Of a DNA stretch of 64,000 nt, positions 2,467-35,899 are shown piece by piece (position 1 is the first letter of the stretch; each line of letters starts with the position of its first letter). Source of the stretch: an uncultured Pseudomonadota bacterium (GTDB taxonomy: Bacteria; Myxococcota_A; UBA796; GCA-2862545). The stretch is from positions 1-64,000 of the forward strand of contig CAJXTB010000025.1 in NCBI GenBank assembly GCA_913061235.1. Direction: 5' to 3'. A program made the translations under genes and the position numbers. The notes below the pieces were generated by a model. It made no database searches and was not told the DNA's origin. It was given only the letters and a program-made list of their open reading frames with translations.

Positions 2467-2657
2467 TGCTTCCTTCGAAAAAGTGTGTGAGCGGGGGTTC
2501 GCGGTGGACGTACGCACCGCTCCCGTCTACGCAACGGGGCGATAGAGTAATGCACGTCTGACTCAGGAGCCTCACGATCTCACTTTCTGACCGAATTGCC
2601 GGCACCCGCCTGGGGTCTATTGCCCTTGCTACGGGCGCTGCTGTCGGTGTTCCGCTG

Positions 2658-8257: not shown

Positions 8258-8632
8258 GTGAAGGGTCGCTGTCGTTCAGACAGCGACCCTTTCTTGTTGG
8301 AGTTCTCGGTGATCATCTTTAACTTTGTGGCTATTGCCCAGATAATGCTGGCCTTTCTGCCGGCCCTCGCCGTTGCGGGCCTTGCCCATCTGGTCGGCGG
8401 CGACTTCGACTTCTGGCTGTTTCTGTGCATTGCCGCCTTGGTCATGCCCATCGACGGCATCTGGCGTCTGGCTGGCATTGCTGGCAGCGAGGGAGAAGAC
8501 GGTGAAGTCATTGTTGGCGGGGGCATGCTGAACATTGTGACGCCCAGTGGCGGTGGTCACTTGTTCTTCATCCCCAACTGGATTGTCGGCGGGCTCGTCG
8601 GAGTCGGTATCTGTACCGGCTTTTTGAGCTAG
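8258..8632 (+). CDS. small Gly-rich membrane protein, hypothetical (start may be 8345)
   Basis: Two or three hydrophobic segments (IMLAFLPALAVAGLAHLVGG, FWLFLCIAALVMPIDGIW, IPNWIVGGLVGVGICTGFL). No obvious RBS. Confidence 0.3.
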   Translation: MKGRCRSDSDPFLLEFSVIIFNFVAIAQIMLAFLPALAVAGLAHLVGGDFDFWLFLCIAALVMPIDGIWRLAGIAGSEGEDGEVIVGGGMLNIVTPSGGGHLFFIPNWIVGGLVGVGICTGFLS

Positions 8633-9402
8633 GCCTCGCCCTTGCGCTCAATACACAGAATCCACTTGCTGCTCTTCGCCGTGACGTCGCGGCCGTCGAA
8701 CCCTCCGGCCTCATGGGCAATGCGAAAGCCGCCCCAGTCGAGCAGCGCCAGCATCTCCTGGTAGTGGAACACGCGAAGGTCGAGCTTTACTTCCTCCGGG
8801 GTTTCTCCCTCGGGAATGTACGTGTACTCGACATGGTGGATCTGGGCGATGGGGTCGTACCAGGACTGTTCCCAGCTGTGGATGTTCTGGCCGGTGACCG
8901 GATGCGCGAAGTCGGTGTGTCCGTATTTTTGGCTCGGATCGCGGCCGTGCAGAATGGGATCTGGAAGGTAGCAGTCCAGGTAGAAGCGCCCGTCGGGTAG
9001 CAGTACGCTGTCGACTGAGGCGAGCAAGGCCAGCACATCACTGTGGTGGGTACAGTGGTGGATGGCATTGAAAGGCAAGAAGACGGTCCGGTAGGAACGC
9101 GGTCCCTTCAAGTGGCGAAAGTCGCCCTGACGCGTACGTATACGCGCTTGCACATGCACCGGTTCGGCGTCGACTTTTCGTTGGAGGTCGCGCAGCATGT
9201 CCTGCGAGCGGTCGATGCCGTGGACTTCAATGTTCGCGCGAGCGAGGGGAAGCGCAATCCTGCCGTTGCCGACGCCGAGCTCCAACACCGGTCCGCCGCG
9301 AGCTTTTGCGAGAGCGACATAGTGCTCAATGTCTGCGGCCAGGGCCGAATACTCAAGGTCGTAGAGCATTGGGTGCCGGTAGGCGAGATCTGACGCGTCC
9401 AT
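8629..9402 (-). CDS. class I SAM-dependent methyltransferase
   Basis: Motif I VLELGVGNGRIALPLA, then LLPDGRFYLD (post-I/II region). 257 aa. Divergent from the HAL-like pair with a 58-bp gap. Confidence 0.8.
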   Translation of the reverse strand: MDASDLAYRHPMLYDLEYSALAADIEHYVALAKARGGPVLELGVGNGRIALPLARANIEVHGIDRSQDMLRDLQRKVDAEPVHVQARIRTRQGDFRHLKGPRSYRTVFLPFNAIHHCTHHSDVLALLASVDSVLLPDGRFYLDCYLPDPILHGRDPSQKYGHTDFAHPVTGQNIHSWEQSWYDPIAQIHHVEYTYIPEGETPEEVKLDLRVFHYQEMLALLDWGGFRIAHEAGGFDGRDVTAKSSKWILCIERKGEA

Positions 9403-9460
9403 CCCGTCCCCCTTTGGTTATGCAGCCTGCCTATCGGGTGGACCGACTGAAGGACAGCGC

Positions 9461-11071
9461 ATGATGGACCAACCGCACAACCCGCAACTGCCCCTCACCG
9501 GTGGGCGGCTCACACTTGACGACGTCGCCGCTGTCGCTCGAAACGGTGCCCGCGTTCACCTGGCGCATGACGCCCGTCTGCGAATGGCTGCTACCCGCGC
9601 CTGGGTTGCTTCGGTCGCACGAGGGGAGTTGCTCGGAGAGGACGGCGAGCCCATGCCGGTCTACGGCGTCAACACTGGCTACGGCTCGCTGGCACGGGTC
9701 CGCCTGCCTTTAGACGCGATTCGTGAGCTGTCGTTGAACCTCGTGCGCTCGCATGCCGCGGGAATGGGTGAACCGGTCGAGCCTGAAGTCGTGCGCGCCA
9801 TGATGGTTCTGCGCGCCAACGCTCTGGCCAAAGGCGCCTCTGGATGTCGTCCTGCACTCGTTGACACGCTGTGTGAGATGCTCGCGAAGGATGTCGTCCC
9901 AGTTGTGCCGTCTCGCGGTTCTTGCGGTTCCTCCGGCGACCTCGCTCCGCTGTCCCACTTGGGCTTGGTTCTGTTCCGCGGTGAAGAAGAAGATGAAGCA
10001 TCCAGCGGCATGGCGTGGCACAAGGGCGTGATGATGTCTGGCCTCAAGGCCATGGCGGCTGCTGGCATTCCGCGCTTGATTCCGTTGCCGAAAGAAGGTC
10101 TGGCCATCTGTAATGGCGCTCAGCTGACTACGGCGTACGCCAGTTTAGCCGTACATGATGCCTCGCGACTTGCCTTAGACGCAGACATTGCCGCCTCTAT
10201 GAGCTTTGAAGCGCTGCGCGGTACGCTACGAGCTTTTCATCCAGATGTTCACGTTCTTCGGCCGTACCCGGGAGCAATGGCCAGTGCAGCGGCAGTCCGA
10301 GGGGTCACCGCGGGGTCGTCGCTGGCGGATTCGCTGCCTGAAAAGGTCCAAGATGCCTACTCATTGCGCTGTGTTCCGCAGGTTCACGGGTCCGTTCGGG
10401 ATGGCTTGCGGTTCGTACGTAGCCAGGTCGAGATTGAGCTGAACTCGGCAACGGACAATCCCATCTTCCTGCTCAATGACCCGTCCGCGAACAAGGCATT
10501 CTCTGCCGGATTGTTCCATGGCGAGCCGATTGGGCTTGCCGCAGACCACCTGCGCTTGGTGTTGTGCGAGCTGGCTGCTATCAGTGAGCGACGCATTTAC
10601 CGCCTTGCTACCGGCACGCTGTCTGCACGCTTGCCGCCGCTATTGGTTCAGAAGGACCGGCCTGGCCTCGGCCTGCTCGCACCGCAGGCGACCGCTGCGG
10701 CCTTGGTCGCTGAGTGCCGGAGCCTGGGCTGGCCGGCTGGATCTGACTCCATTCCCACCTGTGAAGACCAAGAAGACATGGTGGCTATGTCGACGACCGC
10801 TGCGCGTCGGGCTTGGCAGGTGATGCAGTCTGCACGGCGTGTCATCGCGATTGAGATGATGAGTGCTGCGAAGGCGCTGCGCTGGCGTCTTGAGAATGAG
10901 CCTGGCACGGTGCTCGGCATTGGTACTGCTGCCGCCTACCACTGCATTGTGGCTGGACAGACGGACGACATGACGCCGTCCAAACGAATTGAAGTCGTCG
11001 AGGCCATTCTGGCGTCTGGAGACGTCCTACAGGCCGTTGTTACTGCCGGCGTACCGCTGGAGGTGGCATGA
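9461..11071 (+). CDS. histidine/phenylalanine/tyrosine ammonia-lyase family enzyme (MIO family), with Ser-Ser-Gly at the MIO position
   Basis: Full-length HAL/PAL signatures: YGVNTGYG Tyr loop, GSCGSSGDLAPLSH (aligns to GSVGASGDLAPLAH), YSLRCVPQVHG, EIELNSATDNPIF, CEDQEDMVAMS. AAGGA RBS. Confidence 0.85.
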   Translation: MMDQPHNPQLPLTGGRLTLDDVAAVARNGARVHLAHDARLRMAATRAWVASVARGELLGEDGEPMPVYGVNTGYGSLARVRLPLDAIRELSLNLVRSHAAGMGEPVEPEVVRAMMVLRANALAKGASGCRPALVDTLCEMLAKDVVPVVPSRGSCGSSGDLAPLSHLGLVLFRGEEEDEASSGMAWHKGVMMSGLKAMAAAGIPRLIPLPKEGLAICNGAQLTTAYASLAVHDASRLALDADIAASMSFEALRGTLRAFHPDVHVLRPYPGAMASAAAVRGVTAGSSLADSLPEKVQDAYSLRCVPQVHGSVRDGLRFVRSQVEIELNSATDNPIFLLNDPSANKAFSAGLFHGEPIGLAADHLRLVLCELAAISERRIYRLATGTLSARLPPLLVQKDRPGLGLLAPQATAAALVAECRSLGWPAGSDSIPTCEDQEDMVAMSTTAARRAWQVMQSARRVIAIEMMSAAKALRWRLENEPGTVLGIGTAAAYHCIVAGQTDDMTPSKRIEVVEAILASGDVLQAVVTAGVPLEVA

Positions 11072-12525
11072 CAACCCAAATTGATGGTGAGACCCTCACG
11101 ACTGCTGGTATTCATGCCATTGCAGGTGGTGCCGGGGCCTCGCTGAGTGCTTCGGCCCGCGCGCGAATGGAAGCGACCTCTCCCTTCGCGGAGCCCGTCC
11201 TACGTCAGAAGTGGGAGTGGTTGGTCGGTGGGGACGCCCCAGAAGACGACGCTGAGCTCATGACGTCGTTTGTCCACGGTCACTGTGCCGGCGTTGGAGC
11301 CCCGCTTCCTGCCCCTTTGGTTCGTGCGACGCTTGCTGCGCGTGCGAACGTTCTTGCGAAGGGCTTCTCAGGTGTCCGTCCGATGGTCGTAGACGGCGTG
11401 CTGCGGCTGCTGCAAGACAATGTGATTCCGAAAGTCCCACGCCAAGGGTCTGTTGGCACTGCTGGGTGTCCAGCCCTGTCGCATATGGCGTCAGTGGTCC
11501 TGGGATTCGGTGGAGAGGCGTGGGTCTCGGGTGAACTGCAGTGCGTTGGCACATCCTATTTGGAGCATGCACCGACCCAAAAGGAGGTGTTGTCCCTCAT
11601 CAACGGGTCCACGCTGACCACCGCTCTCGCCGCCATCGCGGTTGAGCGCAGTCGTCGCATCCTAGATGTCGCCATGAAGGCGGCAGCGATGTCCTTCGAG
11701 GTCGTCCGTGCCGACACCAGCTGCCTAGACGCCGACGTCTTGGCCCTGCGTGGACAGCCGGGCGGTGTCGTCGTCGCTGAACGGCTGCTTGCGGAGCTCT
11801 CCGGCAGCGGCATTGTGGGGGCTTGGCGTACGCCGGATGCCTTCTGTATTCGCTGTACGCCAGCGGTTCTGGGTGCCGCATACGACGCTGTTGAGGCCAC
11901 AGCAGCGATTATCAATCGCGAGCTCAACGGCGCCTGCGACAACCCCTTGGTACTGCCTGATGGGCGGGTCATTGAGGCCGGTAACTTCCACGCAGCGCCT
12001 ATTGCGCTCGCGCTCGACCACCTGAAGATTGCCATGGCGCAGGTCGCCGGGATCTCAGAGCGTCGAACCTTCCGTATGACGCATGGTCAACTCTCCGGAC
12101 TTCCCAGCTATCTGGCGGAATCCACGGGGTTGAACAGCGGTCTGATGCTCGCCCAGTACACGGCAGCGTCTCGAACTTCGGAGACCAAGGGCTTGGCGCA
12201 TCCGGCCTCGGTCGACACCATTCCCACGATTCAGCACCGCGAAGACCACGTCTCCATGGGGCCCGGCGCGGCGTACATGGCACTCGAGCTACTCGAAGCC
12301 ACCGCGGATGTTGTGGGCATTGAGCTTCTGTGCGGCGCACAGGGGGCGGACCTACACTTTGCTGCGGGCGAAGGTCCACTTGGTAAGGGTACGGCTGCGT
12401 CCCATGCCGCAGTTCGCGAGGTTGTACGCACCTGGGACCGTGACCGCGTGCTGCATCCGGACCTCGCTGCCATGTCTGCGCTGGTTCGCGGTACACGTCT
12501 GGTGGCAGACGGCCCAGCTTGGTGA
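11068..12525 (+). CDS. divergent HAL/PAL-family paralog lacking the MIO Ser and the Tyr loop (probable pseudo-enzyme or altered function)
   Basis: Retains NGACDNPLV, GNFHAAPIA, ISERR and QHREDHVSMG. Has GSVGTAGCPALSHM (Thr-Ala-Gly, one residue shorter) instead of ASG, and no YGxNTGFG loop. Start overlaps the upstream stop (ATGA). Confidence 0.75.
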   Translation: MTTQIDGETLTTAGIHAIAGGAGASLSASARARMEATSPFAEPVLRQKWEWLVGGDAPEDDAELMTSFVHGHCAGVGAPLPAPLVRATLAARANVLAKGFSGVRPMVVDGVLRLLQDNVIPKVPRQGSVGTAGCPALSHMASVVLGFGGEAWVSGELQCVGTSYLEHAPTQKEVLSLINGSTLTTALAAIAVERSRRILDVAMKAAAMSFEVVRADTSCLDADVLALRGQPGGVVVAERLLAELSGSGIVGAWRTPDAFCIRCTPAVLGAAYDAVEATAAIINRELNGACDNPLVLPDGRVIEAGNFHAAPIALALDHLKIAMAQVAGISERRTFRMTHGQLSGLPSYLAESTGLNSGLMLAQYTAASRTSETKGLAHPASVDTIPTIQHREDHVSMGPGAAYMALELLEATADVVGIELLCGAQGADLHFAAGEGPLGKGTAASHAAVREVVRTWDRDRVLHPDLAAMSALVRGTRLVADGPAW

Positions 12526-12547
12526 GCCTGTACAGGGGCGAGTGCCG

Positions 12548-13969
12548 CTAGCCCCCGTGATGAACCGCAGGTAGCCGCGTGTCCAAGTCCCATTCGGGGT
12601 CCCATGCCTGCGTGTGACACGACGTACAGATCGCCTCCAGCACACACACAGGGCAGCTCTCGCCGAGTCCCTCAATGTTGTCGCTTCCGCCACCTGCGGC
12701 AACATGGCGCTCACCGGGACCGTGGCAGCTCTCGCAGCCAACGGACTCGTCGGTCTTGAAGCCAGCGAGCTCGCTCGGCGGTGGGCCGGAGCGTGTTGGA
12801 GAGGCGTGGCAGCTGACACAGGCCACGTTGTTGGCGGCGTCTGGGTGTTCGGCGACCACTTCAGGCTTGGACAGGGTGGCCATGGCTTGGCCGTGGGGAG
12901 AGTCTTTCCACCATGCGTGCTCGGACTCGTGGCAGCTCTGGCATTGGTCCGAGCCGACGAAGGCGCCGTCTTCAAAGGCCAAGAGCGTGCGCGGTGCGGT
13001 GCCCTCGTACAGTGCGGTCCGGGCTTCGCGGTAGGTGGCGTCGTCCATGGCCGATGCCCGGTAGTGGTCAATGAGGGGCAGGCCCTTTTCGTAGGTGAAG
13101 GCGATTGAGTGGTCGGCGTCGTGGCAGCTCTCGCAGGTGCTCTGGGGCTCCACTCTCTGGCCGTCGTGTGGGCCGCCCGCGCTGTGACAGGACTCGCAGC
13201 CTACGTTGACCAGGTCGCTCGTCGCAGACCCGTCCCAACCTGTTGGGAGGCCCGCTCCGGTGACGTGGCAGCTCGTACACTTGTCGTTGGTGGTCTCTTC
13301 GTGCTTGACCAGGGTGTTCCACGCGAGGGAGTGGTGAGACAAGCCATAGGAGGCGGCTTCTTCGGTGTGGCAGGTCGCGCAGACGTTGGTGCCCTGGAAC
13401 TCGCCTTCACGGAACGCAGCGAACGGGTCGCCAGCGATACGGCCCTCGACAAAGGCGTCGTAGCCAGGGGAGTAGGGGTAGAAAGCATCCACTACTTCGA
13501 AGCCGTCGTCTACACGCTGGACCAGCAGGGCCGACGGCGTGCTGCGAATGCCCAGGATGGTCCCGATGTCGCGCATGGTGTCTGGGATGATGTCGTAGGG
13601 GACGTTGTACTCTTGGGCGTACACGTTGATCTGCCCCTGAGTCGCGCGTCCACCGGCAATACCGACGACGTCAGCGGTGCGGCCCAGTCGCTCCGACAGT
13701 GCATTGAGCTCGGGCTGAACGTGTTGGCAGTGAGGGCAGGTGGGCGAGAAGTAGACGAGCAGCGTTGGTTTGCGCTTGATCTGGCTGGCCAGCGCATCTG
13801 GGAACTGCAACACCATGCTCTCGGTCTGGCCCGCGATGACGGTTCCGGCGTTGGCTGCGGGGGTACCGCGGTGCCAGCCACGGGAATCGAGGTCCGTCGC
13901 TAAGACCACGCCAATCAGCACCAGAGCGGACACAGTGAACAACAGCAAGAAGCGGCGGGAAGACGTCAT
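12548..13969 (-). CDS. membrane-anchored thioredoxin-fold (CPHC) / octaheme cytochrome c fusion protein
   Basis: N-terminal TM segment (FLLLFTVSALVLIGVVLA). Trx-like region with YFSPTCPHCQH. Eight CxxCH motifs: CATCH, CTSCH, CESCH x3, CQSCH, CVSCH, CTSCH. The longer start at 14017 was rejected in favour of MTSSRR at 13969. Confidence 0.75.
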   Translation of the reverse strand: MTSSRRFLLLFTVSALVLIGVVLATDLDSRGWHRGTPAANAGTVIAGQTESMVLQFPDALASQIKRKPTLLVYFSPTCPHCQHVQPELNALSERLGRTADVVGIAGGRATQGQINVYAQEYNVPYDIIPDTMRDIGTILGIRSTPSALLVQRVDDGFEVVDAFYPYSPGYDAFVEGRIAGDPFAAFREGEFQGTNVCATCHTEEAASYGLSHHSLAWNTLVKHEETTNDKCTSCHVTGAGLPTGWDGSATSDLVNVGCESCHSAGGPHDGQRVEPQSTCESCHDADHSIAFTYEKGLPLIDHYRASAMDDATYREARTALYEGTAPRTLLAFEDGAFVGSDQCQSCHESEHAWWKDSPHGQAMATLSKPEVVAEHPDAANNVACVSCHASPTRSGPPPSELAGFKTDESVGCESCHGPGERHVAAGGGSDNIEGLGESCPVCVLEAICTSCHTQAWDPEWDLDTRLPAVHHGG

Positions 13970-14038
13970 GGGCTCTCGGTGGGCAGGCAGGGGCGACAAC
14001 ACGCGGTGGGACCACATTGTTGCACAGAAGACTGGACT

Positions 14039-16756
14039 CTACGGGGCGCTTCGCAGACGTGCCGCTTCGCGGGCCTCGCGCTCCGCTTCTCGTGCGTCTC
14101 GTTCGGCTTCCTTGCGCGCCTGTTCTGCATCTCGCGCAGCCTGGAGCTCTTCGATGTACACCGCGCGAAGCTCTTCGAGGTGCCGCCGGTCCCAACTGCG
14201 AGAGGGGTCTGCCACGAGTACCTGCTCGTAGGAACGCACTGCAGCGCGTTGGTTACCTGCGTCTGCGAGGCGTTCGGCTTCGGTCACCCACACATCAGCA
14301 AGGGCTTCCCCTATGCGGATGAGGTCGCGATTTCGTGGCGACCAGGCACGGGCTTGCTGCAGTAAGGCAGTGGCTTGTTCGGGCTCGGCCGTCTCTGCCT
14401 GTGAGGCGTAGCAGCTGGCCAATCCATCCCGAATCCTGTCGTCTTGGTCTTGTCGGTAGGGATGGTCGTTTGCAAGGTGGCGTCGGCCGTCGCTCCACAA
14501 CATCTCCGCCGGCTCACAGCGCATTGCCGTCAGCAGCTCGTCTACGCGAACGAGCGCACCGTCGTATCCGGCAACCATTGTGGCCTCGTCGGTGACGGTG
14601 ATGTCGCGTACCCATCGGGCCTCACCCTCCAACACCCTGGGGGTGTGGGTGACGGGAGTGGCACCAACGGGGCTTGCTGGCCAGACACCCTGGGCCTCAT
14701 CGACGCCGAACACGTACAGGCCAATGTCGTAGCGGCCTTCGGGCAAGTCCGTTGGAATGTCGATCCGGTGACGGCCGACCATCTCCTCGGTCTTGCGCCA
14801 GCGGGAGAAGGGGATGTAGTCGTAGGCCGGTGGGACTTCTACAACGTGTGTGGTCTCGTCATTGGCCAGGAACAAGAAGGCACGGAAACCGTCCGAACGA
14901 GTGGTCCGTCGCCAGCTCAACTCCACGAACAGCTCGCCGCCAGGCATCACGGACTTCACCGGAATGTCGAATCGGTTGAGCATCACAGCGCGTCCAAAAC
15001 GAACCAGGCTGTTGCTGCGGTCTGCACGCTCGACGAAGTGGTCGCGGTGAACGTGGTTGCCCTCGTGAACGCTGTACACGGACACGGGGAAGGCGGGGAC
15101 TTCTACGTAGTTGTCCCACCCATCATGGTGACGCATCTTGGTGCGGCTTGCCCAACTTGCGTGGACATGCGCGAAGGTTGGATTGCGTGCGTCGTACACG
15201 TACTCGTCGATGAAGTCGAGCTGCCAGTGGTTGTGGCCCATAGGTACGTCTACTAGGCCGGCCATGTCGACAATCTGCGGGCCGAACCACCACAAGTGAG
15301 CGCCCATGTCGACGTCCATGATGGTGGCGTTGTCGATGTTGAGGCGGTCTTGAACACCCTGCATGTACTGGACGCGTCGGTGGACATCGTACGGTGTGGT
15401 GACGGGCATGGAGACCAGCAGCACGGCGTGGACGGCGTCAGGAATGAGCAGGCCGGCGAGCAGGAGACCCGTCGCCCAGGTTCGTGCGCGTGGGCTGTTG
15501 AGCACCTCGACAACGGCATGAACACCACTGGCCAGGACAACGGAGATTGGGACGATGGCCATGGACACCCAGCGCCAGCCGCGCATCCAGTCGCCACCCG
15601 AGTACAGGGCAAAGAACAGAACGGTGCAGCCCATCAGCCAGGCGAGAACCCGGGGGGCGTCCTTTTCGCGGTCGATGGCTACGGCCGGAACCAGCAAGAC
15701 CATGGCGGCCAACCAGACGACGCGCCCACGTACCAACAGGTCCGGCTCATCCCAGCGCTTGCCCCAGTCATCTCCACCGAGCTCGAGGGCCTTCATCAGC
15801 TCACTCGGCCAAGAGATGCCCAGCGCAATCAGGATGACGGTGACAAGAGCGAGTCCCAAGCCCACGCGGCCGCGCCAGGAGCGAACGCCGGTGATGCCGA
15901 GCAAGAACAACGGGGCGACAAAGCCGCGACCGTGTCCCAAGAACCATCCGCGCAGGTAGTCCCAGCCGCGTTTGTCCCATTCCATAGGCTGGAAGCGGGC
16001 TTGTTCACCTAGCTTTGCGTAGTAGGTATTCGGGAATTCCCAGGCGAAGTACGCGTAGCGCCACCCGTGCCACAGCAGCAGTGGAATGAGCAGGAAGACG
16101 CCCCAGGACACGGCCCAGGTCATGGCTTTTCGCCAGCCCATTCGGAACGCGAAGGCCCAGCCGGTCAGTCCAGCCACTGCCACGTACATGGGGGCTTCGG
16201 GACGGGTCATGGCGAGTGCAGCGAACCATAGGGCGGACCAAGGCTTGCCGCCTTCCGTGACTTCGCGCAGCATGGCTACACAGCCTGCGGCCAGGAAGAA
16301 GCTGAAGAAGGCGTTCTCAAGACCGGAGGCACACCAGTTGGCGTGCTGAGGGGACATGGCCAGTAGCAATGGAACGAGCGCTGACCACCGTCCGAGCGGA
16401 AGCATGCGCTTTCCCCACTGTCCGCCAACAACGATGGTTGCTGCGCCGAAGAGGGCTCCCAAGAGCTTGCTCGCGACCCATGGACCCACGCCGACAACGC
16501 GCAATGCAGCCAGGGCGAGGGTCCATGTAGGATTCGAGAAGCCTTCGACGCGCTCGCCACCAATGTAGGTAACGAAGCCGTCGCCAAGGGCGAAGTTGCG
16601 CGCGTAGGCGAAGGTAATGGCGGCGTCTTCGACGAACCAAGCCGAGTACCAGGCGTAGTGGAACAAGAACAGCGCCACACAGAGCATGGTTGCGTGGTGG
16701 TGGATGCGTCCAGCCGCAGTCAGGCCATCCCACCAGTTCACAACACGCGTCTTCAC
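14039..16756 (-). CDS. GT-C fold membrane glycosyltransferase (ArnT/PMT/TMTC-like) with a large His-rich periplasmic C-terminal domain and a TPR-like/coiled tail
   Basis: 905 aa. About 12 predicted TM helices. First-loop acidic motif FVEDAAITFAYARNFALGDG resembles the ArnT/PMT DE...Y..AR motif. C-terminal domain VDVPMGHNHW..HVHASW..HVHRDHF. Tail is EAERDAREAEREAREAARL. Confidence 0.6.
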   Translation of the reverse strand: MKTRVVNWWDGLTAAGRIHHHATMLCVALFLFHYAWYSAWFVEDAAITFAYARNFALGDGFVTYIGGERVEGFSNPTWTLALAALRVVGVGPWVASKLLGALFGAATIVVGGQWGKRMLPLGRWSALVPLLLAMSPQHANWCASGLENAFFSFFLAAGCVAMLREVTEGGKPWSALWFAALAMTRPEAPMYVAVAGLTGWAFAFRMGWRKAMTWAVSWGVFLLIPLLLWHGWRYAYFAWEFPNTYYAKLGEQARFQPMEWDKRGWDYLRGWFLGHGRGFVAPLFLLGITGVRSWRGRVGLGLALVTVILIALGISWPSELMKALELGGDDWGKRWDEPDLLVRGRVVWLAAMVLLVPAVAIDREKDAPRVLAWLMGCTVLFFALYSGGDWMRGWRWVSMAIVPISVVLASGVHAVVEVLNSPRARTWATGLLLAGLLIPDAVHAVLLVSMPVTTPYDVHRRVQYMQGVQDRLNIDNATIMDVDMGAHLWWFGPQIVDMAGLVDVPMGHNHWQLDFIDEYVYDARNPTFAHVHASWASRTKMRHHDGWDNYVEVPAFPVSVYSVHEGNHVHRDHFVERADRSNSLVRFGRAVMLNRFDIPVKSVMPGGELFVELSWRRTTRSDGFRAFLFLANDETTHVVEVPPAYDYIPFSRWRKTEEMVGRHRIDIPTDLPEGRYDIGLYVFGVDEAQGVWPASPVGATPVTHTPRVLEGEARWVRDITVTDEATMVAGYDGALVRVDELLTAMRCEPAEMLWSDGRRHLANDHPYRQDQDDRIRDGLASCYASQAETAEPEQATALLQQARAWSPRNRDLIRIGEALADVWVTEAERLADAGNQRAAVRSYEQVLVADPSRSWDRRHLEELRAVYIEELQAARDAEQARKEAERDAREAEREAREAARLRSAP

Positions 16757-19461
16757 AGGCGTTCTCCATCCGTGCGCGGTGTGCGCAGTCGGCGCTGTAA
16801 GGGGTCTAGAGGGTCATCGTCGAGGTGCAGTCGCTCTCGCCTGGCGACTTCAGCGGCTCGCCGGGCGTGGCTTCGTGTGGGGTCGATGCGTAGGGCTTGA
16901 GAGAGCTGGGCGTATGCCAGGTCGTAGTCGCCTAATGACATTGCAGCGTAGCCCGCCTGTTCGAGCTGTTGTGCGACCGGTGTGGAGACGTCGTGCAGTC
17001 CAGGAACATTGATGTCCCACCAGCGTGCCTTCTCCAACATGGGCCAGGCTGTCCACTGCGGCAGACGTCGCTCAGCGTTGCCGAGCCAACACTCTGCCAG
17101 TGTGCGTGCGGCGACCTGACGGTTTGCACTGACCCATCGCGGGTCGTGCGCGCGGTAGGCTCGTGCCGCGTACCAGAGGTCTTCCGCCATGTCGCAGTCG
17201 CCCATCGATGCGGTGTCGGAGAGCATGCTCATGTGGTCGAGGGCCAGCGTCAGGATGTCTGCGGCCGGCCGAATCCAGATGACTCTTGGCCAGCGAATCT
17301 CGCCCTCAATGACGCGTGGGGAGTCGCTCTGAGCGCCTGACGACCAGCTCTGTACGGGCAGCACACCTGTGCGGTCGGTGACGAAGAAGCCAAGGTCGGG
17401 TTGGCCGCGCTCGACGTCGTCGGGGATGGGCACGGCGACTCGGCTGACAACAATGTCGCCTGGCGACCACCGCGAGGGCTCGTACCAGTCGTACCCTGGT
17501 GCGACGTCGAAGAGGACTTGTGTGCCGTCTTGCCAGACCAAGAAGCCAGTCACTCGAAAGTCGTCAGTGGCCGTCTCGATGCCCGACGCGCTTAGGGCGA
17601 CCTCTAGGAAGAGGCTACCTCCGATCTCACCTGTCTCCACCGGCGTACGCCATCCAATGATCTGGACTTCACTCGGAGCGCGAATGGTATCGGCATCGAG
17701 CGGTACTTCAGGGTCTACCGGCAATGCGAAGGTGGCTCCGCGACCGGTCTCCCAGGTGTCCGTCACCAGATGGCGCTTGGCAACGTGGTTGCCGGGATGT
17801 GAGCTCGAGCGACCGGCTGGGTAGGGCGGTAGCTCCAGGTACTGCTCTTCCCACTCTGGGTGTTGGCGAATCTTGAGCTTGCTCGCCCAGCCGCCGTGCA
17901 CGTGGGCAAAGTCGGGACGTCGCTCACTGAACAGGTACTCCTCTACGAAGTCGTGCTCGTAGTGGTTGTGGGCGATGGGGACGTCTACTAGGCCCGCAAT
18001 GTCCGACAGCTCATGGCCGGACCACCACATGATGCCGCCCATGTCCACGTCCAGCGTGACCACGTGGTCCATGTGTAGGCGTTCTTGCACACCCGCCATG
18101 TAGGACACCCGCTTCTTGATGCTGTACGGGCTGGTCTCTGGCCTTTGGGCGAACGTGTAGGTCCCGCGAATCCCAGAGGTGAGCGCCAGCAATGCCACCG
18201 CAGACATGGTGGTCACATACAGTGCGTCCCGCGCCCAACCGCGGAAGAAGCTGGCCAAGAACGTACCCAACTCAACGGTACCCACGGCGGTGAGGATGGC
18301 GATTGGAACGCTGATGAGCGACATCCAACGCCATGCTTTCATCCAGTCGCCGTCGGCATACATCGCAAAGAACAGTCCGAAACCGAGCAGGTGTAGACAC
18401 ACGCCGGTGACTGGATGGCTGAGCCCACGGCGCCCGACGATGGGCATGATGACCAGCGAGCTGACGAGCACCACCGCGAGGGCCGTCGTCCACGTACGCA
18501 TGTGCTCGCCTTCTTCACCGGTGCCACCCATCAGGTAGATGACGGCCAAGATGAACACGACCTGGGCGGTCACCAGCGGCGCCAAGAACCGGTTGCCGCG
18601 AAGCGTTGAGACGGCAGCCCACCACAGCGGAATGAGCCCGAGCTGCCACTGGCGCATGGACCAGCTGTAGACGTACGTCCATGACTTCTTGTCGAACTGC
18701 AACAGCTTGGTGTTCGCAACGCCCGATTTTGCGTAGTAGGTATTCGGAAGAGGCCAGGCGAAATACCACTGTCGCCAGATCTGATGCGCGCCAAAGGGAA
18801 CCCAGAAGGTGACCAGCCACGCCATCCATCGGCGGCCAAGCCACAAGGTCCATAGTCCAACCACCGCGGCGTAGGCGATACCCTCGGGCCGTGTCAGCGC
18901 AACGCCGGCCAGCGCGAGTGCACTCCACGGCCAGCGACCGTCTTCTTCCCGCACCATGCACCACAGACCGACTGCCAACAACGCGCTGAACAACGCGTTC
19001 TCCAGCCCGCTCGCTCCCCAGATGGCGAACTGCGGGTTTGCAGCCAGCACCAGCCCAGCAAGGACCGGTGCGACCGGGCCGTCTGGACGAATTCGACGGA
19101 CCAGGTCCACGACTACGGCCACTGTCAGCGCCGCTAGAACTGCGGCGAACACCTTGCTGCTGGTGAAGCTGGAGATGCCGACGACTTCAGGAATGGCCAG
19201 TAAGAAGGTCCACAGTGGGTTGCTGTATCCTTCGACCCGCTCCCCACCAGGGTAGGCCACGAGCCCGTATCCACCGGCGAGATTCCGAGCGAAGGTGAAG
19301 CTGATAGCGGCGTCTTCGATGTACCAGCGAACGAGCATGAGCTGGTGTACGACGGCACCGATGACGCTCACTACGCCCGCCACGAACACAGTCTGGTCCG
19401 TGCTGCGCAGTCCTTGCCACCATTGCCGGAGCCGTATCGTCACCCGTTTGCGTCCTCTCAC
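16753..19461 (-). CDS. GT-C fold membrane glycosyltransferase, paralog of the downstream gene
   Basis: 902 aa with the same architecture. WYIEDAAISFTFARNLAGGYG loop motif. C-terminal domain co-linear with the paralog (VDVPIAHNHYEHDFVEEY, HVHGGWASKLK). Stop overlaps the next start (translational coupling). Confidence 0.6.
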   Translation of the reverse strand: MRGRKRVTIRLRQWWQGLRSTDQTVFVAGVVSVIGAVVHQLMLVRWYIEDAAISFTFARNLAGGYGLVAYPGGERVEGYSNPLWTFLLAIPEVVGISSFTSSKVFAAVLAALTVAVVVDLVRRIRPDGPVAPVLAGLVLAANPQFAIWGASGLENALFSALLAVGLWCMVREEDGRWPWSALALAGVALTRPEGIAYAAVVGLWTLWLGRRWMAWLVTFWVPFGAHQIWRQWYFAWPLPNTYYAKSGVANTKLLQFDKKSWTYVYSWSMRQWQLGLIPLWWAAVSTLRGNRFLAPLVTAQVVFILAVIYLMGGTGEEGEHMRTWTTALAVVLVSSLVIMPIVGRRGLSHPVTGVCLHLLGFGLFFAMYADGDWMKAWRWMSLISVPIAILTAVGTVELGTFLASFFRGWARDALYVTTMSAVALLALTSGIRGTYTFAQRPETSPYSIKKRVSYMAGVQERLHMDHVVTLDVDMGGIMWWSGHELSDIAGLVDVPIAHNHYEHDFVEEYLFSERRPDFAHVHGGWASKLKIRQHPEWEEQYLELPPYPAGRSSSHPGNHVAKRHLVTDTWETGRGATFALPVDPEVPLDADTIRAPSEVQIIGWRTPVETGEIGGSLFLEVALSASGIETATDDFRVTGFLVWQDGTQVLFDVAPGYDWYEPSRWSPGDIVVSRVAVPIPDDVERGQPDLGFFVTDRTGVLPVQSWSSGAQSDSPRVIEGEIRWPRVIWIRPAADILTLALDHMSMLSDTASMGDCDMAEDLWYAARAYRAHDPRWVSANRQVAARTLAECWLGNAERRLPQWTAWPMLEKARWWDINVPGLHDVSTPVAQQLEQAGYAAMSLGDYDLAYAQLSQALRIDPTRSHARRAAEVARRERLHLDDDPLDPLQRRLRTPRTDGERL

Positions 19462-19585
19462 CTAGGCTCGCGGCCCTATCTCGGTGGCCGGGTTGTTTGG
19501 CGAACCACTGACTGCGGTGGACGTAGAATTTCCGCTCGCTGAGGTCTTCGACACGCTCGAGAGCATGCCGGACCTGCAGTCCACG

Positions 19586-19975
19586 TCAGTGCCGACGCGT
19601 TGACTTACCCGGTACCCGTCCAATGCGGGTGTTCTTGCCATTCGCGACGTTTCGCATGCGCTTACGGGCGCGAAGGACCATCTTCTTGCGGGTCTCTCGC
19701 CAGGCGTCATCAAGCGCACTCCACGAGTTCTCTGCCGCGGTGGGCTTGTTGAACAGGAAGAGTTTGGCTGCTTGTTGTGCCCGGTAAAGTGGTGTTCCGG
19801 GCTCAATCTCTACGCGGTCTTCCAGGAGCCCGACCAGACGTGCGGCGAGCTGTGGACGACGGGCGTCTAGGCACTCTGTAATGGCGGTCTCGAGCACACC
19901 GATGTCGTCACTGTCGGAGAGTTCCGAGACGAAGACATCTTCCGCGTGGGCGTTGCGCTCGGGAAGCTCGGCCAT
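19586..19975 (-). CDS. hypothetical protein with acidic N-terminus and strongly basic C-terminal tail, translationally coupled to pspA
   Basis: 129 aa. Start overlaps the pspA stop. C-terminus is RKKMVLRARKRMRNVANGKNTRIGRVPGKSTRRH. Confidence 0.5.
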   Translation of the reverse strand: MAELPERNAHAEDVFVSELSDSDDIGVLETAITECLDARRPQLAARLVGLLEDRVEIEPGTPLYRAQQAAKLFLFNKPTAAENSWSALDDAWRETRKKMVLRARKRMRNVANGKNTRIGRVPGKSTRRH

Positions 19976-20682
19976 CAGAGGTTCTTGCCGCCTTCTGCAG
20001 CAGCCGAACGAGCGGCCATCTGCTTCTTCATCTCTTCGAGCTGACCACGAGCCGAGCTGTTGGCGGCCTTTTCCTTGATCTTGGCCAACTTCGAGTCGAG
20101 GCTTCCACCCTGAATCTCGGTGCCAATGTCGGCTTCAGCCTGAAGCTTGTCGATGTGCGTCCGCACGTTGTCGAGAGCCTTGATGTCTGCGTCTGTGGAC
20201 AGACCGTCGAGGGTCTCTTGGATTCCAATACGCGCTTCGGCGTTGGCCTTCTTGGCCAGCATGGTCTCCTTCTCGCGCTTGAGCTTTCCGATCTCGGCCT
20301 GGAAGGCAATGAGACCGGACTTGGCGTCTTCGGCTTGGCCGCTCACCTTGGTCAGCTCGGCCGAGATGCCTTCGATCTGGCTCGTGAGCTCGTCTTTCTT
20401 CTGGATGAGCACCAGAGCCACTTCGTCTTCGCCGTCTTCCACGGCGATAGGCAGCTGCTGCATGATCTCCTTGAGCTGGCGCTCTTTGGTCTCCAGCTCG
20501 GTCGACAGCTTGTTGCGTAGGTACACAATCCCGCTGACGGCCTTCTTCAGCTCGCGGTGCTTCTTGACGCGCTCGTCAATAGCGGCTTCGTACACGGCCT
20601 CAGGGTTGCGGTTCTCGATGTCCGAGATCCACAAGCTCATGAAGCCCTTCCAGATGTTCCCGAGGCGGTCGAAAAAGCCCAT
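19975..20682 (-). CDS. pspA: PspA/IM30 (phage-shock protein A / Vipp1) family protein
   Basis: MGFFDRLGNIWKGFMS... N-terminus followed by about 220 aa of coiled-coil heptads. Length of 235 aa is typical for IM30. Confidence 0.85.
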   Translation of the reverse strand: MGFFDRLGNIWKGFMSLWISDIENRNPEAVYEAAIDERVKKHRELKKAVSGIVYLRNKLSTELETKERQLKEIMQQLPIAVEDGEDEVALVLIQKKDELTSQIEGISAELTKVSGQAEDAKSGLIAFQAEIGKLKREKETMLAKKANAEARIGIQETLDGLSTDADIKALDNVRTHIDKLQAEADIGTEIQGGSLDSKLAKIKEKAANSSARGQLEEMKKQMAARSAAAEGGKNL

Positions 20683-20881
20683 GCTTATGCTCCAAAATCA
20701 GTTGGGCATCCCTAGCCCCCGGTACACCCCGGGGCAAACCCATCGCTACCGGTACGCACGTGGTTGTCTCATCATTGCACTCGGATGTCGATGTGGGATC
20801 AACTTGGTGGCCGTCGTGCGGATTGGCGTAGGCACGGCGAACGGGTAAAACGCGAGCCTATATCTATGGGCGCGTTGGAAC

Positions 20882-23200
20882 ATGACGGACTTACCTGAAG
20901 AAACCAGTAGAGAAGACCTCATCCGTGCCACAATCGGTCATGGTGCGGTCTTGTGGACGGTCGTGCTGGTTGCCAAGACGATTCTCACCTTAGAACGTCA
21001 TGGACTCTCCAGTTTCTCATCTATTGGAAATATTGGCGAATACTTGTTCCGAGACGCTGTGGTGGCAACCGTCTGGACGGTCGTGGCCGTAGTGCTGATG
21101 GTTGGGTTCCGTGCTCACCGCTTCGTTCAGGCTGGCTTGCTTGGATCTGGCATCCTCGCGGCTCTATACACTGGCCTGAACATTGGCTTCTTCCGCTCCT
21201 TCTCGACCCCCCTGAATCGCGGGTTGCTCGGTATGGCGGGTGGCGAAGTCAATATGGGCGACTCGGCGCTTCAGTTCGTCACGGTGTCCAACTTGTGGCC
21301 CCTGGCCTTGGTGGTCGCGGCCGCGGTTCTTCCCCCACTAGTTGCTGCTCGGTTGCCTAAAATCTCGCTGGCTGGGCTGACGCTGGCTGCTCTTGCGTCC
21401 ATGATCACGTTCCTGTTCATTGGCCCCAACACGCGTCATCACGGGCCTCCCCTGGGACTCGACCGCAACGCCATCTGGGAAGCGACGCTGCTGCCTTTTC
21501 CGAAGGAAGTGGAGACCGGCGAGCGTCTGACCCTGGACATCTCGGCGCCGATTCCCCGCGGTTCCATCGTCAATCCTGGCTCACAACGTGAGGATTTGAG
21601 CCACCTGCACGGTGTCGCAGATGGCATGAACGTCGTGCTCGTCGTCTTAGAGTCGACCAGCGCGATGTACATCTCGGCGTACGGCGCAGACCCGGAACTC
21701 GACCCCATGCCGAACGTCTCGGCACTGGTCGACAACGCCTTGGTATTTGACGCTTGGTATGCACCCGTTCCGACCAGCATGAAGTGCATGTTCTCCTACT
21801 TGTGCTCCATGTACCCCTACCCGGATGCCATCGCGGAAAGTCAGCTAGCACCTGAAATTCCGTGCCATTCTCTACCCGAGGTTCTGTCGGAGACTGGCTT
21901 TAAGGGGTCATTCGTTACCTCGGCGAAGTTCACCTTCAATGACAAGACCCGCTTCCTTCGCAATCGCGGCTACAGCAGCCTGCGCGACGCCAACAATCTG
22001 GCTGGCGCGGACATGTTCTTCAGCAACAACTGGGGCCTGGCAGAAGACGCCGCTTTAGGCGAGATGAAGCGGTTCTTACATTCCCGCGGCACGAATGAAC
22101 GTTTCTTCCTGACCTATGTGCCGATTTTTCCACACCATCCCTACGTCATTCCGCCTGATGAACCACGGCGATTTGGCGACGACGACTTTGGTCGCTACCG
22201 GGACGGCTTGGCGTACACCGACCGCATTGTGGGTGAGCTGATTCAGACGCTGGAAGACAACGGCCAGCTCGACAACACCCTGGTGATGGTCATTGGCGAC
22301 CATGGTGAGCCGTTCAACCAGCACATGGGCAACCGGATGCACTCCAACGCCATTTACGAAGAGAATGTGCGGGTACCGGCGATGATCTACAACCGCGTAT
22401 TGTTCCCAGAAGAACGGCGTGTTGCGGCGACCGTCGACCACACCGCCTTGGCACCGACGCTGACCGATTTGCTCGGCATCGACCCGCCGGAACGGTGGCA
22501 AGGGTCGTCCGCGCTGTCAGGCGAACAGGACATGGCGCGGTTCTTCACCGACTACTCGTTTTTGCTTCTCGGCGTCCGTGACGGCAAGTACAAGTACATC
22601 TACAACCTCGCTACTGAGACCGATGAGCTGTTTGACCTGAACGAAGACCCGTTCGAGCAGTTCAATATCGCCGATGAAGAACCGGTTCTCGTCGACGCCT
22701 ACCGAGAACATGTTGTGTACGCGTACCATCGGCAGATTGGCGTGTTTGAAGACTACGACGCCTACCTGGCGGGCACTGTCGCGATGCCCGAGTACACGCC
22801 GCTTGAGAACGTCCCGCCTACCTTCACGCGGATTGGCTGGGGCAAGCTGCGGCCGGACTTGAGTGTAGGCGTCACGCCACTGAACATCGCAGGTGTTGGC
22901 TACTCCGATGGTCTAGGAACCCACGCCCCAGGACGTGTTCGCTACCACCTTGCTGGCCGGTACGAAAAGCTGGAAGGCGGCGTAGGCCGAGACTTCCGTG
23001 CTTGGGAAGGCGCCGCAGAAGCAGAGATTTGGGTGGATGACGTCCGCGTCTTTGCATCGGGCGTACTGACTCGACATGTTCCCGCTGTGACCTTCGAGAT
23101 TGACCTGACGGGTGCCCAAGACATGGAGTTGGTGTTCCTAGATGGCGGCGACACTAGCAAGGGCGACCATGTGGACTGGGTAGACGTCCGACTGCGATAG
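20882..23200 (+). CDS. LtaS/MdoB-like membrane sulfatase-superfamily transferase fused to a C-terminal NPCBM/NEW2 carbohydrate-binding-like domain
   Basis: N-terminal multi-TM region. Sulfatase core NVVLVVLESTSAMYISAYG (Thr/Ser nucleophile region) and MVIGDHGEPFNQH. C-terminal ~150 aa include GWGKLRPDLSVG...GDHVDWVDVRL, typical of NPCBM. Confidence 0.7.
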   Translation: MTDLPEETSREDLIRATIGHGAVLWTVVLVAKTILTLERHGLSSFSSIGNIGEYLFRDAVVATVWTVVAVVLMVGFRAHRFVQAGLLGSGILAALYTGLNIGFFRSFSTPLNRGLLGMAGGEVNMGDSALQFVTVSNLWPLALVVAAAVLPPLVAARLPKISLAGLTLAALASMITFLFIGPNTRHHGPPLGLDRNAIWEATLLPFPKEVETGERLTLDISAPIPRGSIVNPGSQREDLSHLHGVADGMNVVLVVLESTSAMYISAYGADPELDPMPNVSALVDNALVFDAWYAPVPTSMKCMFSYLCSMYPYPDAIAESQLAPEIPCHSLPEVLSETGFKGSFVTSAKFTFNDKTRFLRNRGYSSLRDANNLAGADMFFSNNWGLAEDAALGEMKRFLHSRGTNERFFLTYVPIFPHHPYVIPPDEPRRFGDDDFGRYRDGLAYTDRIVGELIQTLEDNGQLDNTLVMVIGDHGEPFNQHMGNRMHSNAIYEENVRVPAMIYNRVLFPEERRVAATVDHTALAPTLTDLLGIDPPERWQGSSALSGEQDMARFFTDYSFLLLGVRDGKYKYIYNLATETDELFDLNEDPFEQFNIADEEPVLVDAYREHVVYAYHRQIGVFEDYDAYLAGTVAMPEYTPLENVPPTFTRIGWGKLRPDLSVGVTPLNIAGVGYSDGLGTHAPGRVRYHLAGRYEKLEGGVGRDFRAWEGAAEAEIWVDDVRVFASGVLTRHVPAVTFEIDLTGAQDMELVFLDGGDTSKGDHVDWVDVRLR

Positions 23201-23936: not shown

Positions 23937-25427
23937 ATGTCCCTGCTCCTTATTGCCCTCGCCCTTGCTGGTCCGCATGCCGACCAAGTGGAGCAGTTCG
24001 CCGGCCAGGACATCGTTGCCCAGCGTCCACTTCCTGCTCTTTTACCGGACGTCACGCCTGGGCCTGACCGCATGGTCTACGGGTATGAAGCCTACTGGAA
24101 CGCCGATCTCAACACCGTTCCCTGGGATGACCTGAGCCACCTCGCAGTGTTCTCGTCAGGCGTGACGACCTCCGGGAATCTGACCGAGACCTCTCGCTTC
24201 GACCGAGCCATTGACGCGGTGGCGATTGGGGCTGCATACGGCGTGAAGGTCCACCTGGTGGTCACCAACTTTACGACGTCGGAGCTCACCACGTTGCTCT
24301 CCAGTCCCTCGGCACGCTCGACTCTCATTGGCGAGCTGGTCGACGAGGTCGCACGGACTGGCGCTCACGGCGTGAACATCGACTTTGAGAGCATGCCGTC
24401 GTCACAGCGGGCGAACATGGTCACCTTTGTACGTGACCTGGATGCCGCCGTAGATGAGGTTGTTCTTGCGACACCGGCTGTAGATTGGTCCGGTGCCTGG
24501 GACTACGCAGCGCTTGCCGAGCACAGTCACCTGTTCATCATGGGCTATGGATATCACTGGTCTGGCAGTGACTATGCGGGGCCCGTCGATCCGCTGTTCG
24601 GCGGCGGAATCTGGAGTGCTTACAGCCTGGACTGGACCGCGCAAGACTACCTTGCCAAGGGAGCGGCCGCAGACAAAGTCATTCTTGGAATGCCGCTGTA
24701 CGGCAACAAGTGGCCTGTCAGCAGCACTGGCGTGCCGGCACCTACAACCGGTCGGGGCAGTGCGGTCATCTTCAGCACGGCATGGGCCAACGGTGCTGCA
24801 AACTCCGAAGGCTACGACGCCACATCCTTGAGTCACTACTACAATCTGGGGGGAGAGCAGGCGTGGTACGGCGACACACAGACCGTTCAAGAGCGTATTC
24901 AATATGCAGATACCGAAGGTCTGGGTGGCTTCGGCTTCTGGGCGCTTCACTACACCGGCAATGACACCGAATTCTGGGGCATGGTGCACGACGAAACGCA
25001 CATGCTCACGGATGATGACCCGAGCGACCCGGGTAGCGAAGGTGGTGAGGATGATGCTGGCCTCGTCGCCAATGCGGGTCGTCCGTTCTTGGCCTACGTC
25101 GGGGATACAGCCGTGATTGGTTCGGAGAATAGCCGCATTCCAGAGACCGGTGTCACGTACGAATGGACACAGGTGAGCGGCCCGACCGTTGGCCTCGCGA
25201 ACCCCGAGACTGCCGAGGTCTCCTTTGTCGTGACAGAGCCTGGGGTTGTGGCCCTTGAATTAGTGGTTGGCGATGGCACGAACATCAGTCGCCCTGACCC
25301 CACGTATGTGGTGGTGCTGGACCGCGACATCGGGGCTGCGTACCGCGGGTGTCAGACGATTCCGGCGCCACTCAGCGCATCACTGCTGTTGGGCGCGCTT
25401 GCGCTTGGCCTGCGTCGCCGTCGCTAG
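23937..25427 (+). CDS. GH18-family chitinase-like glycoside hydrolase with C-terminal PKD/Ig-like region and MYXO-CTERM sorting tail
   Basis: Signal peptide. GH18 core with HGVNIDFE (the D-x-E catalytic part of the DxxDxDxE motif is retained; the first two Asp are H and N) and FIMGYGYHW. C-terminus is GCQTIPAPLSASLLLGALALGLRRRR. Confidence 0.7.
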   Translation: MSLLLIALALAGPHADQVEQFAGQDIVAQRPLPALLPDVTPGPDRMVYGYEAYWNADLNTVPWDDLSHLAVFSSGVTTSGNLTETSRFDRAIDAVAIGAAYGVKVHLVVTNFTTSELTTLLSSPSARSTLIGELVDEVARTGAHGVNIDFESMPSSQRANMVTFVRDLDAAVDEVVLATPAVDWSGAWDYAALAEHSHLFIMGYGYHWSGSDYAGPVDPLFGGGIWSAYSLDWTAQDYLAKGAAADKVILGMPLYGNKWPVSSTGVPAPTTGRGSAVIFSTAWANGAANSEGYDATSLSHYYNLGGEQAWYGDTQTVQERIQYADTEGLGGFGFWALHYTGNDTEFWGMVHDETHMLTDDDPSDPGSEGGEDDAGLVANAGRPFLAYVGDTAVIGSENSRIPETGVTYEWTQVSGPTVGLANPETAEVSFVVTEPGVVALELVVGDGTNISRPDPTYVVVLDRDIGAAYRGCQTIPAPLSASLLLGALALGLRRRR

Positions 25428-35680: not shown

Positions 35681-35899
35681 GTTTCCCTCCGTTCGCCTAC
35701 ATCACATGGGTGCCGCGCCGTGGTCGGAAGTGAAGGGGGAGCAGTGCCGTTTTGAGGTTTTTCCTCCGCCACCCGTCCGACCGATGAACCGCAACCCCAT
35801 GCAACAGACGGCGTCCCAACACTCCTTCGGCCGGTGCGAGCAAGGTTCTCCGTCCGCGACTGCTGCACGTGGTATTTTTGCCGCCGGGAGTACAGATTC

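Follow-up and report, generated by a model that had tools for sequence, protein, structure and literature searches.

What are two adjacent genes for proteins of some 900 residues doing behind a gene for a PspA/IM30-family protein? The genes in question, geneA (upstream) and geneB (downstream), lie on the minus strand of a 64,000-nucleotide window (the whole stretch of DNA analyzed; positions 1–64,000 of contig CAJXTB010000025.1, assembly GCA_913061235.1) from an uncultured bacterium that GTDB places in Myxococcota_A. The original prediction, made from the sequence alone, took them for a coupled tandem of paralogs, each with a glycosyltransferase C (GT-C)-like N-terminal module, and suggested protein O-glycosylation of the TMTC/PMT type. 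The coupled tandem was borne out. The …CTG TGA end of geneA is overlapped by the GTG start of geneB, giving a 4-nt GTGA overlap, and the two products align co-linearly from end to end with 34% identity over 895 columns (E-value 6e-135), a sequence similarity that is far above chance. All the acidic and His motifs that had been quoted, WFVEDAAITFAYARNFA, WYIEDAAISFTFARNLA, VDVPMGHNHW, HVHASW..RHHDGW and EGNHVHRDHF among them, are present in the two paralogs. The best-supported assignment for geneA, geneB and their relatives is an unannotated, new GT-C sequence family with a novel ectodomain.

Fold and candidate active site of the membrane module

Pfam-A and NCBIfam scans of both window proteins returned nothing on the membrane module of about 450 residues or on the His-rich region; the only Pfam signal in the pair consisted of weak tetratricopeptide repeat (TPR) matches near the C-terminus of geneA (residues 834–862). 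When phmmer queries and a family profile built from 45 sequences were searched against all PDB sequences, TPR proteins were again the only matches, through one conserved unit (profile positions 821–864). Profile searches against GT39, GT83, DUF1736 and STT3 placed the window proteins in none of these families. No match to PMT, PMT_4TMC or MIR was found in geneA, geneB or 45 family members at E-values up to 0.1, nor did the same proteins match DUF1736, the loop between transmembrane helices (TM) 7 and 8 of TMTC/GT105 proteins. The STT3 profile (GT66, STT3/PglB oligosaccharyltransferases) gave no match either. PMT_2 (PF13231) failed to match geneA and geneB and was matched by four of the 45 relatives, the best of which (P0063), at 29.5 bits, was just over the gathering score of 26.1 (E-value 1e-6, residues 93–234). 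DUF2142 was also touched by four of the 45 family members when these were scanned singly. PMT_2 and DUF2142 both model membrane proteins of the GT-C type; their matches are a faint sequence trace.

Structure supports the GT-C-like module that had been predicted. An AlphaFold2 model of geneB, computed on the family alignment, has a mean predicted local distance difference test (pLDDT) score of 92.9 and a predicted template modeling (pTM) score of 0.89, and a Foldseek search of the PDB with this model returned ArnT, Pmt4, ALG9, ALG12, EmbB and AftA at the top. The hallmarks of the GT-C(A) class are a conserved N-terminal module of seven TM helices and two juxtamembrane helices, JM1 and JM2, between TM1 and TM2 (PMC12041299). 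The geneB model has such a module: TM1 (residues 14–37) is followed by a first periplasmic loop with two short helices (43–56 and 76–87), by TM2 and by a kinked TM3. The DSSP helices of the model, hydropathy and the positive-inside rule together point to some 13 membrane helices, with the N-terminus in and the C-terminus out.

In GT-C(A) enzymes, the catalytic Asp is located at the tip of JM1 and is essential in all of them (PMC12041299). Judged by its position in the sequence, the E43–D44 pair of geneB stands at this very place. It is present in all 92 family sequences that are not cut by contig ends, and the aligned E49–D50 of geneA belongs to the same invariant set; indeed, geneA retains every family-invariant residue. 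R185, K248 and R395, located in predicted periplasmic loops, are found in 96 of 96 family sequences. Under the topology proposed above, all of the module's invariant polar residues (E43–D44, G145–L146–E147, R185–P186–E187, P242/T244/K248 and D389–W390–M391/R395) would fall in periplasmic loops.

A first search for relatives yielded 465 matches, and every name given to them by any source was 'hypothetical protein'. Among 1.84 billion representatives, 3,184 clusters at 50% identity matched at E-values up to 1e-30. At least 566 loci were found in GTDB species genomes, mostly labeled Myxococcota or Deltaproteobacteria, the rest carrying broader or evidently misassigned labels of metagenome-assembled genomes (MAGs); the family is essentially restricted to Myxococcota. 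The window proteins are 90% identical to those of a Myxococcota MAG, L005. In one distant family member (P0185), a C-terminal arylsulfotransferase domain is fused to the GT-C protein.

Gene neighborhood and the link to pspA

The pair is not free-standing. On the same strand, the gene order is pspA, orf129, geneA, geneB and a gene for a cytochrome (Table 1). A scan of positions 12,300–21,000 for sigma-70 promoters and terminators revealed no excess of matches over shuffled sequence, and the operon boundaries are therefore based on spacing and strand only.

We asked how constant this neighborhood is by comparing 79 distinct loci (57 single-gene and 22 tandem-pair) with tblastn, counting a locus as informative for the upstream side if its sequence extended 1.5 kb or more in that direction. 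Of the 62 informative loci, 53 have a pspA homolog upstream in the same orientation, mostly no more than 600 bp away; the figure is 43/48 for single-gene and 10/14 for tandem-pair loci. This adjacency persists even where the GT-C proteins share 33–45% identity. In a clustering of neighbors that used a GC3 (third-position GC content) filter against antisense shadow open reading frames (ORFs) of high-GC DNA, the next commonest were a GH18 protein (26 of the 79 loci), an IstB-like ATPase (24) and an unknown 436-aa protein (23). A distant family member, L084, has no pspA nearby, and the link is therefore not universal.

The arrangement is that of a phage shock protein (Psp) module, with a PspA/IM30 gene in a conserved same-strand neighborhood together with a membrane partner. 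As in the systems with PspBC, LiaIH or PspM/N partners, genes encoding a small partner and an integral membrane protein come next after the PspA/IM30 gene, in the same orientation (PMC11237479). What sets the window apart from the modules surveyed there is its membrane partner, a protein of 900 aa with a GT-C fold. The window ORFs that were scanned included no PspB, PspC or PspF. The terms 'glycosyltransferase', 'PMT', 'GT-C' and 'myxococc' never occur in the text of that 2024 survey of PSP partners (PMC11237479). The association of GT-C genes with pspA is previously undescribed, and it is more informative than the link to the cytochrome gene on which the original prediction had drawn.

The small gene between pspA and geneA adds to this picture. 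Its product is soluble; the N-terminal part is acidic and helical and the tail very basic, with 15 Lys/Arg in the last 45 residues. It had no Pfam or PDB match, apart from a designed repeat protein that an orf129 profile picked up in the PDB. Homologs detected by jackhmmer in 30 loci are always situated between pspA and the GT-C gene. In two loci, L043 (112–459) and L066 (7515–7862), the orf129 domain is part of the GT-C open frame; these are the only two cases counted as fusions, and their frames measure 1182 and 1145 aa, respectively, from stop to stop. Their genomes are closely related, so that a single fusion event has been seen twice. At the level of sequence, the fusion places orf129 at the predicted cytoplasmic N-terminus of the GT-C enzyme, and orf129 may be a PspA adaptor.

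Several other genes of the window surround this string. Divergent from pspA are a sulfatase of 772 aa whose C-terminal domain is of the carbohydrate-binding NPCBM/NEW2 type (20882–23200, plus strand) and, also upstream of pspA, a GH18 protein with a PKD domain (23937–25427, plus strand), which has homologs elsewhere (e.g. L076:2951–4663). About 17 kb from pspA, the window encodes a flotillin-like protein of the SPFH/Band-7 type that carries a GYF_2 domain (1105–2517, minus strand). In Bacillus, an SPFH protein is described as linking PspA to the membrane (PMC8581546).

Periplasmic half, paralogs and cytochrome

A separate model of geneB residues 452–865, likewise confident (pLDDT 93.5), divides the periplasmic half into three parts (Table 1). 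The His-rich C-terminal domain of the original prediction proved to be narrower than proposed. The enrichment is confined to the alpha/beta subdomain at residues 452–585, where His accounts for 9% of residues in both window copies and 6.5% in the family mean, compared with 1.4–2.9% elsewhere. What stood is a conserved putative metal site within it. Among 96 sequences, D483, G485, D497, H530 and G566 are invariant (96/96), H532 and H564 are found in 95/96 and D503 in 94/96, whereas H487 and H568 are kept in about 80% and the remaining His residues are variable. The His clusters are thus conserved in part. Position 509 is His in 88 of the 96 sequences (family motif VDVPMAHH) and Asn in both window copies (geneB 15230–15232; geneA about 17914–17916, the Asn of VDVPIAHNHY), as it is in the L005 relatives of both.

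The Asp/His cluster represents a possible divalent-metal site. We also considered reading its pattern, DxDxG..D..HxH..GNH, as a calcineurin-like metallophosphoesterase. This was rejected: at about 130 residues the subdomain is small, a fold match of this kind did not appear, and the motif order differs from that of calcineurin-like enzymes. A profile of the subdomain alone had no match among PDB sequences, and no structural match to it appeared among the top Foldseek matches listed. The invariant Asp/His subdomain may be a new acceptor-binding or metal-binding module.

By fold matches, the beta-sandwich resembles generic Ig, CBM and ML domains. The domain that follows is a helical repeat by fold, with one TPR unit recognizable by sequence, and its invariant Cys pair (C747 and C782) is consistent with a periplasmic disulfide. 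A TPR-like or coiled tail had been attributed to the second gene only. The charged tail (EAERDAREAEREAREA) is indeed there, but the TPR-like motif DPxRSW..RRRAE is common to both paralogs and to the whole family; charged tails of this kind are variable and occur on either paralog type in other genomes.

Judging from a neighbor-joining tree, geneA and geneB are anciently duplicated. Downstream copies, including geneB, form one clade and upstream copies, including geneA, another, nearer to the single-gene forms; three loci represent independent recent duplications. Both the A and the B orthogroup keep every invariant residue. This, together with the translational coupling, favors a heterodimer, and the two products probably form one with two active subunits; the paralogous Pmt1–Pmt2 heterodimer offers a parallel to the coupled A/B pair.

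The octaheme/Trx gene downstream, which the original prediction linked to the pair, is present as described. Its product combines an N-terminal anchor with a thioredoxin-like domain (CPHC) and eight CxxCH motifs, and matches Pfam Cytochrome_C554 (E-value 9e-22) and, more weakly, AhpC-TSA and Thioredoxin. In addition, there is a partial NCBIfam match, limited to the C-terminal part, to 'UshA-like (seleno)protein' (E-value 9e-41). The link to the family, however, is limited to a sub-clade: such a gene lies downstream in 14/19 informative tandem-pair loci and in only 5/47 informative single-gene loci. Since these five group with the A-type clade, the cytochrome link is real but lineage-specific, not family-defining. 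CPHC is the DsbA-type active site. The protein could be a heme-reoxidized periplasmic thiol oxidase, and a possible redox partner of the ectodomain Cys pair.

Two adjacent paralogs of aromatic amino-acid ammonia-lyase (9461–11071 and 11068–12525, plus strand) and an S-adenosylmethionine (SAM)-dependent methyltransferase (8629–9402, minus strand) occupy window positions 8629–12525 and converge on the cytochrome gene. L001/L009 and L005 have this trio in the corresponding place, where L014 and L063 also have the lyase (homologs 58–64% identical; 94% in the near-identical L005). The wider neighborhood of several loci repeatedly contains large proteins with at least nine MopE-type putative Cu/metal-binding repeats (window 35834–38341, plus strand; L002 16771–18886; L066:6–2897).

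Table 1. Genes of the string and features of the paralogs, in window coordinates
Feature	Position	Strand	Description
pspA (PspA/IM30 family, 235 aa)	19975..20682	-	Pfam PspA_IM30, E-value 1.3e-22; first gene of the same-strand string
orf129	19586..19975	-	Start overlapping the pspA stop (TGATG)
geneA (upstream paralog, A-type)	16753..19461	-	902 aa, GTG start; GT-C-fold membrane module and periplasmic domain
geneA E49–D50	19312..19317	-	Acidic pair right after TM1; aligned to geneB E43–D44; family-invariant
geneB (downstream paralog, B-type)	14039..16756	-	905 aa, GTG start
geneB residues 1–450, polytopic GT-C(A) membrane module	15407..16756	-	DSSP helices, hydropathy, fold matches
geneB E43–D44, candidate catalytic acid	16625..16630	-	First residues of juxtamembrane helix 43–56
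geneB residues 452–585, His-rich alpha/beta periplasmic subdomain	15002..15403	-	Invariant D483, G485, D497, H530, H532, W535, H564, G566
geneB residues 586–722, beta-sandwich (Ig/CBM-like)	14591..15001	-	
geneB residues 723–865, helical TPR-like domain	14162..14590	-	Invariant C747, C782
geneB residues 866–905, charged low-complexity helical tail	14042..14161	-	Not conserved
Trx-like (CPHC) and octaheme c-type cytochrome, membrane-anchored	12548..14017	-	21 nt downstream of geneB

Possible function of the pair

On balance, we favor the view that geneA and geneB encode paired GT-C(A)-fold glycosyltransferases which use polyprenyl-phosphate sugars and are deployed with pspA and orf129 in membrane stress. 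In this scheme, a polyprenyl-phosphate-linked sugar would enter the membrane module from the bilayer after synthesis and flipping by enzymes whose genes lie elsewhere. R185, K248 and R395 would hold the donor phosphate, while E43–D44, at the tip of JM1, would serve as the catalytic base or nucleophile. A periplasmic cap made of the His/Asp alpha/beta subdomain with its possible divalent-metal site, the beta-sandwich and a disulfide-stabilized TPR-like domain would present the acceptor, which might be a glycan, lipid or protein of the envelope. The two paralogs would work as a heterodimer, as Pmt1–Pmt2 and EmbA–EmbB do. On the cytoplasmic side, orf129 would be the partner of the GT-C N-terminus, and co-expression with pspA and orf129 would make glycosylation part of the membrane-stress response. 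The analysis itself established the fold, the invariant residues, the linkage of the genes and the A and B orthogroups; the type of donor, the residue roles, the heterodimer, induction by stress and any part played by the cytochrome are inferences.

There is a precedent for such a family. The GT-C-fold enzyme of the GT136 ORF12-type three-component system lacked similarity to existing CAZy families and founded a new glycosyltransferase family; like the window family, it carries a periplasmic domain, carbohydrate-binding-like in that case, after the last TM helix (PMC11127046). GT136-type loci, however, encode a polyprenyl-phosphate-sugar synthase and a flippase next to the GT-C gene, neither of which is near geneA and geneB. 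A polyprenyl-phosphate-sugar synthase (GT2) and a GtrA-like flippase were absent both from the window ORFs scanned and from the recurrent neighbors in the 79 loci.

Competing explanations differ mainly by the acceptor, which would be a lipid as for ArnT, a protein as for PMT, TMTC and TfpW, or a polysaccharide as for AftB; one further explanation treats the membrane module as a scaffold. Transfer of an undecaprenyl-phosphate (Und-P)-linked sugar to a membrane lipid or an acceptor of the lipopolysaccharide/lipid A type, altering surface charge or packing, would provide direct chemical defense against the insults that induce PspA. This is a version of our favored explanation that names the acceptor, and we regard it as unlikely, though worth considering. 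Compared with ArnT (the Und-P-4-amino-4-deoxy-L-arabinose:lipid A transferase, GT83, PDB 5ezm/5f15), the window proteins fall below the PMT_2 model, their ectodomain is four times larger and of different content, and no arn genes for donor synthesis are nearby. We give about the same low weight to protein O-glycosylation from a polyprenyl-phosphate-sugar donor, with the TPR-like domain selecting periplasmic or outer-membrane proteins. The GT-C fold and the acidic motif in loop 1 are common to the window family and to PMT, TMTC and TfpW (GT39, GT105 and the pilin arabinosyltransferase), and in TMTC and TfpW, moreover, a TPR region, lumenal or periplasmic, follows the last TM helix. Yet PMT, MIR and DUF1736 have no match here, one TPR unit is recognizable instead of an array, and AftB and ArnT are closer in structure. 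In addition, unlike in the pilA–tfpW arrangement, there is no adjacent candidate acceptor gene. The neighboring PspA and orf129 proteins cannot be substrates, because they are cytoplasmic and the putative active site faces the periplasm. The TMTC/PMT-type system of the original prediction is thus not established.

Less probable still is that the family branches or caps exopolysaccharide or another cell-surface polysaccharide in the manner of AftB and Emb proteins, pspA adjacency then being inherited synteny with no functional coupling. AftB, the mycobacterial terminal beta-1,2-arabinofuranosyltransferase (GT-C(A), PDB 9dlh), has no detectable sequence relationship to the window family. It showed no active-site metal, whereas the window family adds a beta-sandwich, a TPR-like domain and an invariant Asp/His cluster; moreover, AftB is found in the context of arabinan genes and the window family in Myxococcota beside pspA. 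That adjacency survives at 33–45% identity while other neighbors reach at most 26 of 79 loci, the orf129 fusion argues for physical coupling, and no polysaccharide-synthesis cluster (Wzx/Wzy, glycan ABC exporter, GT2/GT4) is adjacent. We find it the least convincing that the GT-C module is a scaffold or sensor, binding lipid or serving as an anchor as PIG-U does in the glycosylphosphatidylinositol transamidase, and that the ectodomain is the active part. The His/Asp subdomain would then be a metal-dependent hydrolase or transferase, or a metal or redox sensor signaling damage to PspA through orf129. For a pure scaffold, however, it is hard to explain why the catalytic acid and the loop residues are strictly invariant in more than 90 sequences at 33–45% identity, and the alpha/beta subdomain has no match to a known hydrolase in sequence or fold.

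A more ambitious extension of the paired-glycosyltransferase scheme is speculative, and we consider it improbable as a whole. It would make the locus a Myxococcota-specific Psp system with a GT-C membrane effector, in which PspA and orf129 dock on the cytoplasmic N-terminus while the periplasmic His/Asp metal site and TPR domain recognize and glycosylate damaged or nascent envelope. Inner-membrane repair of the ESCRT-III-like kind would thereby be coupled to glycan or lipid remodeling, and in one lineage an A/B heterodimer would be wired to the CPHC octaheme cytochrome as a redox input.

GT-C enzymes make or decorate a large part of what lies outside the cytoplasmic membrane, and their catalog of sequence families is still growing, as the founding of GT136 in 2024 shows. 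With its near-constant place behind pspA, this family points to a type of Psp partner not mentioned in the 2024 PSP survey. A functional coupling, if there is one, would link membrane repair at the cytoplasmic face to glycosylation in the periplasm, and would offer a testable route into the roles of PspA-type systems in a phylum where they are unstudied.

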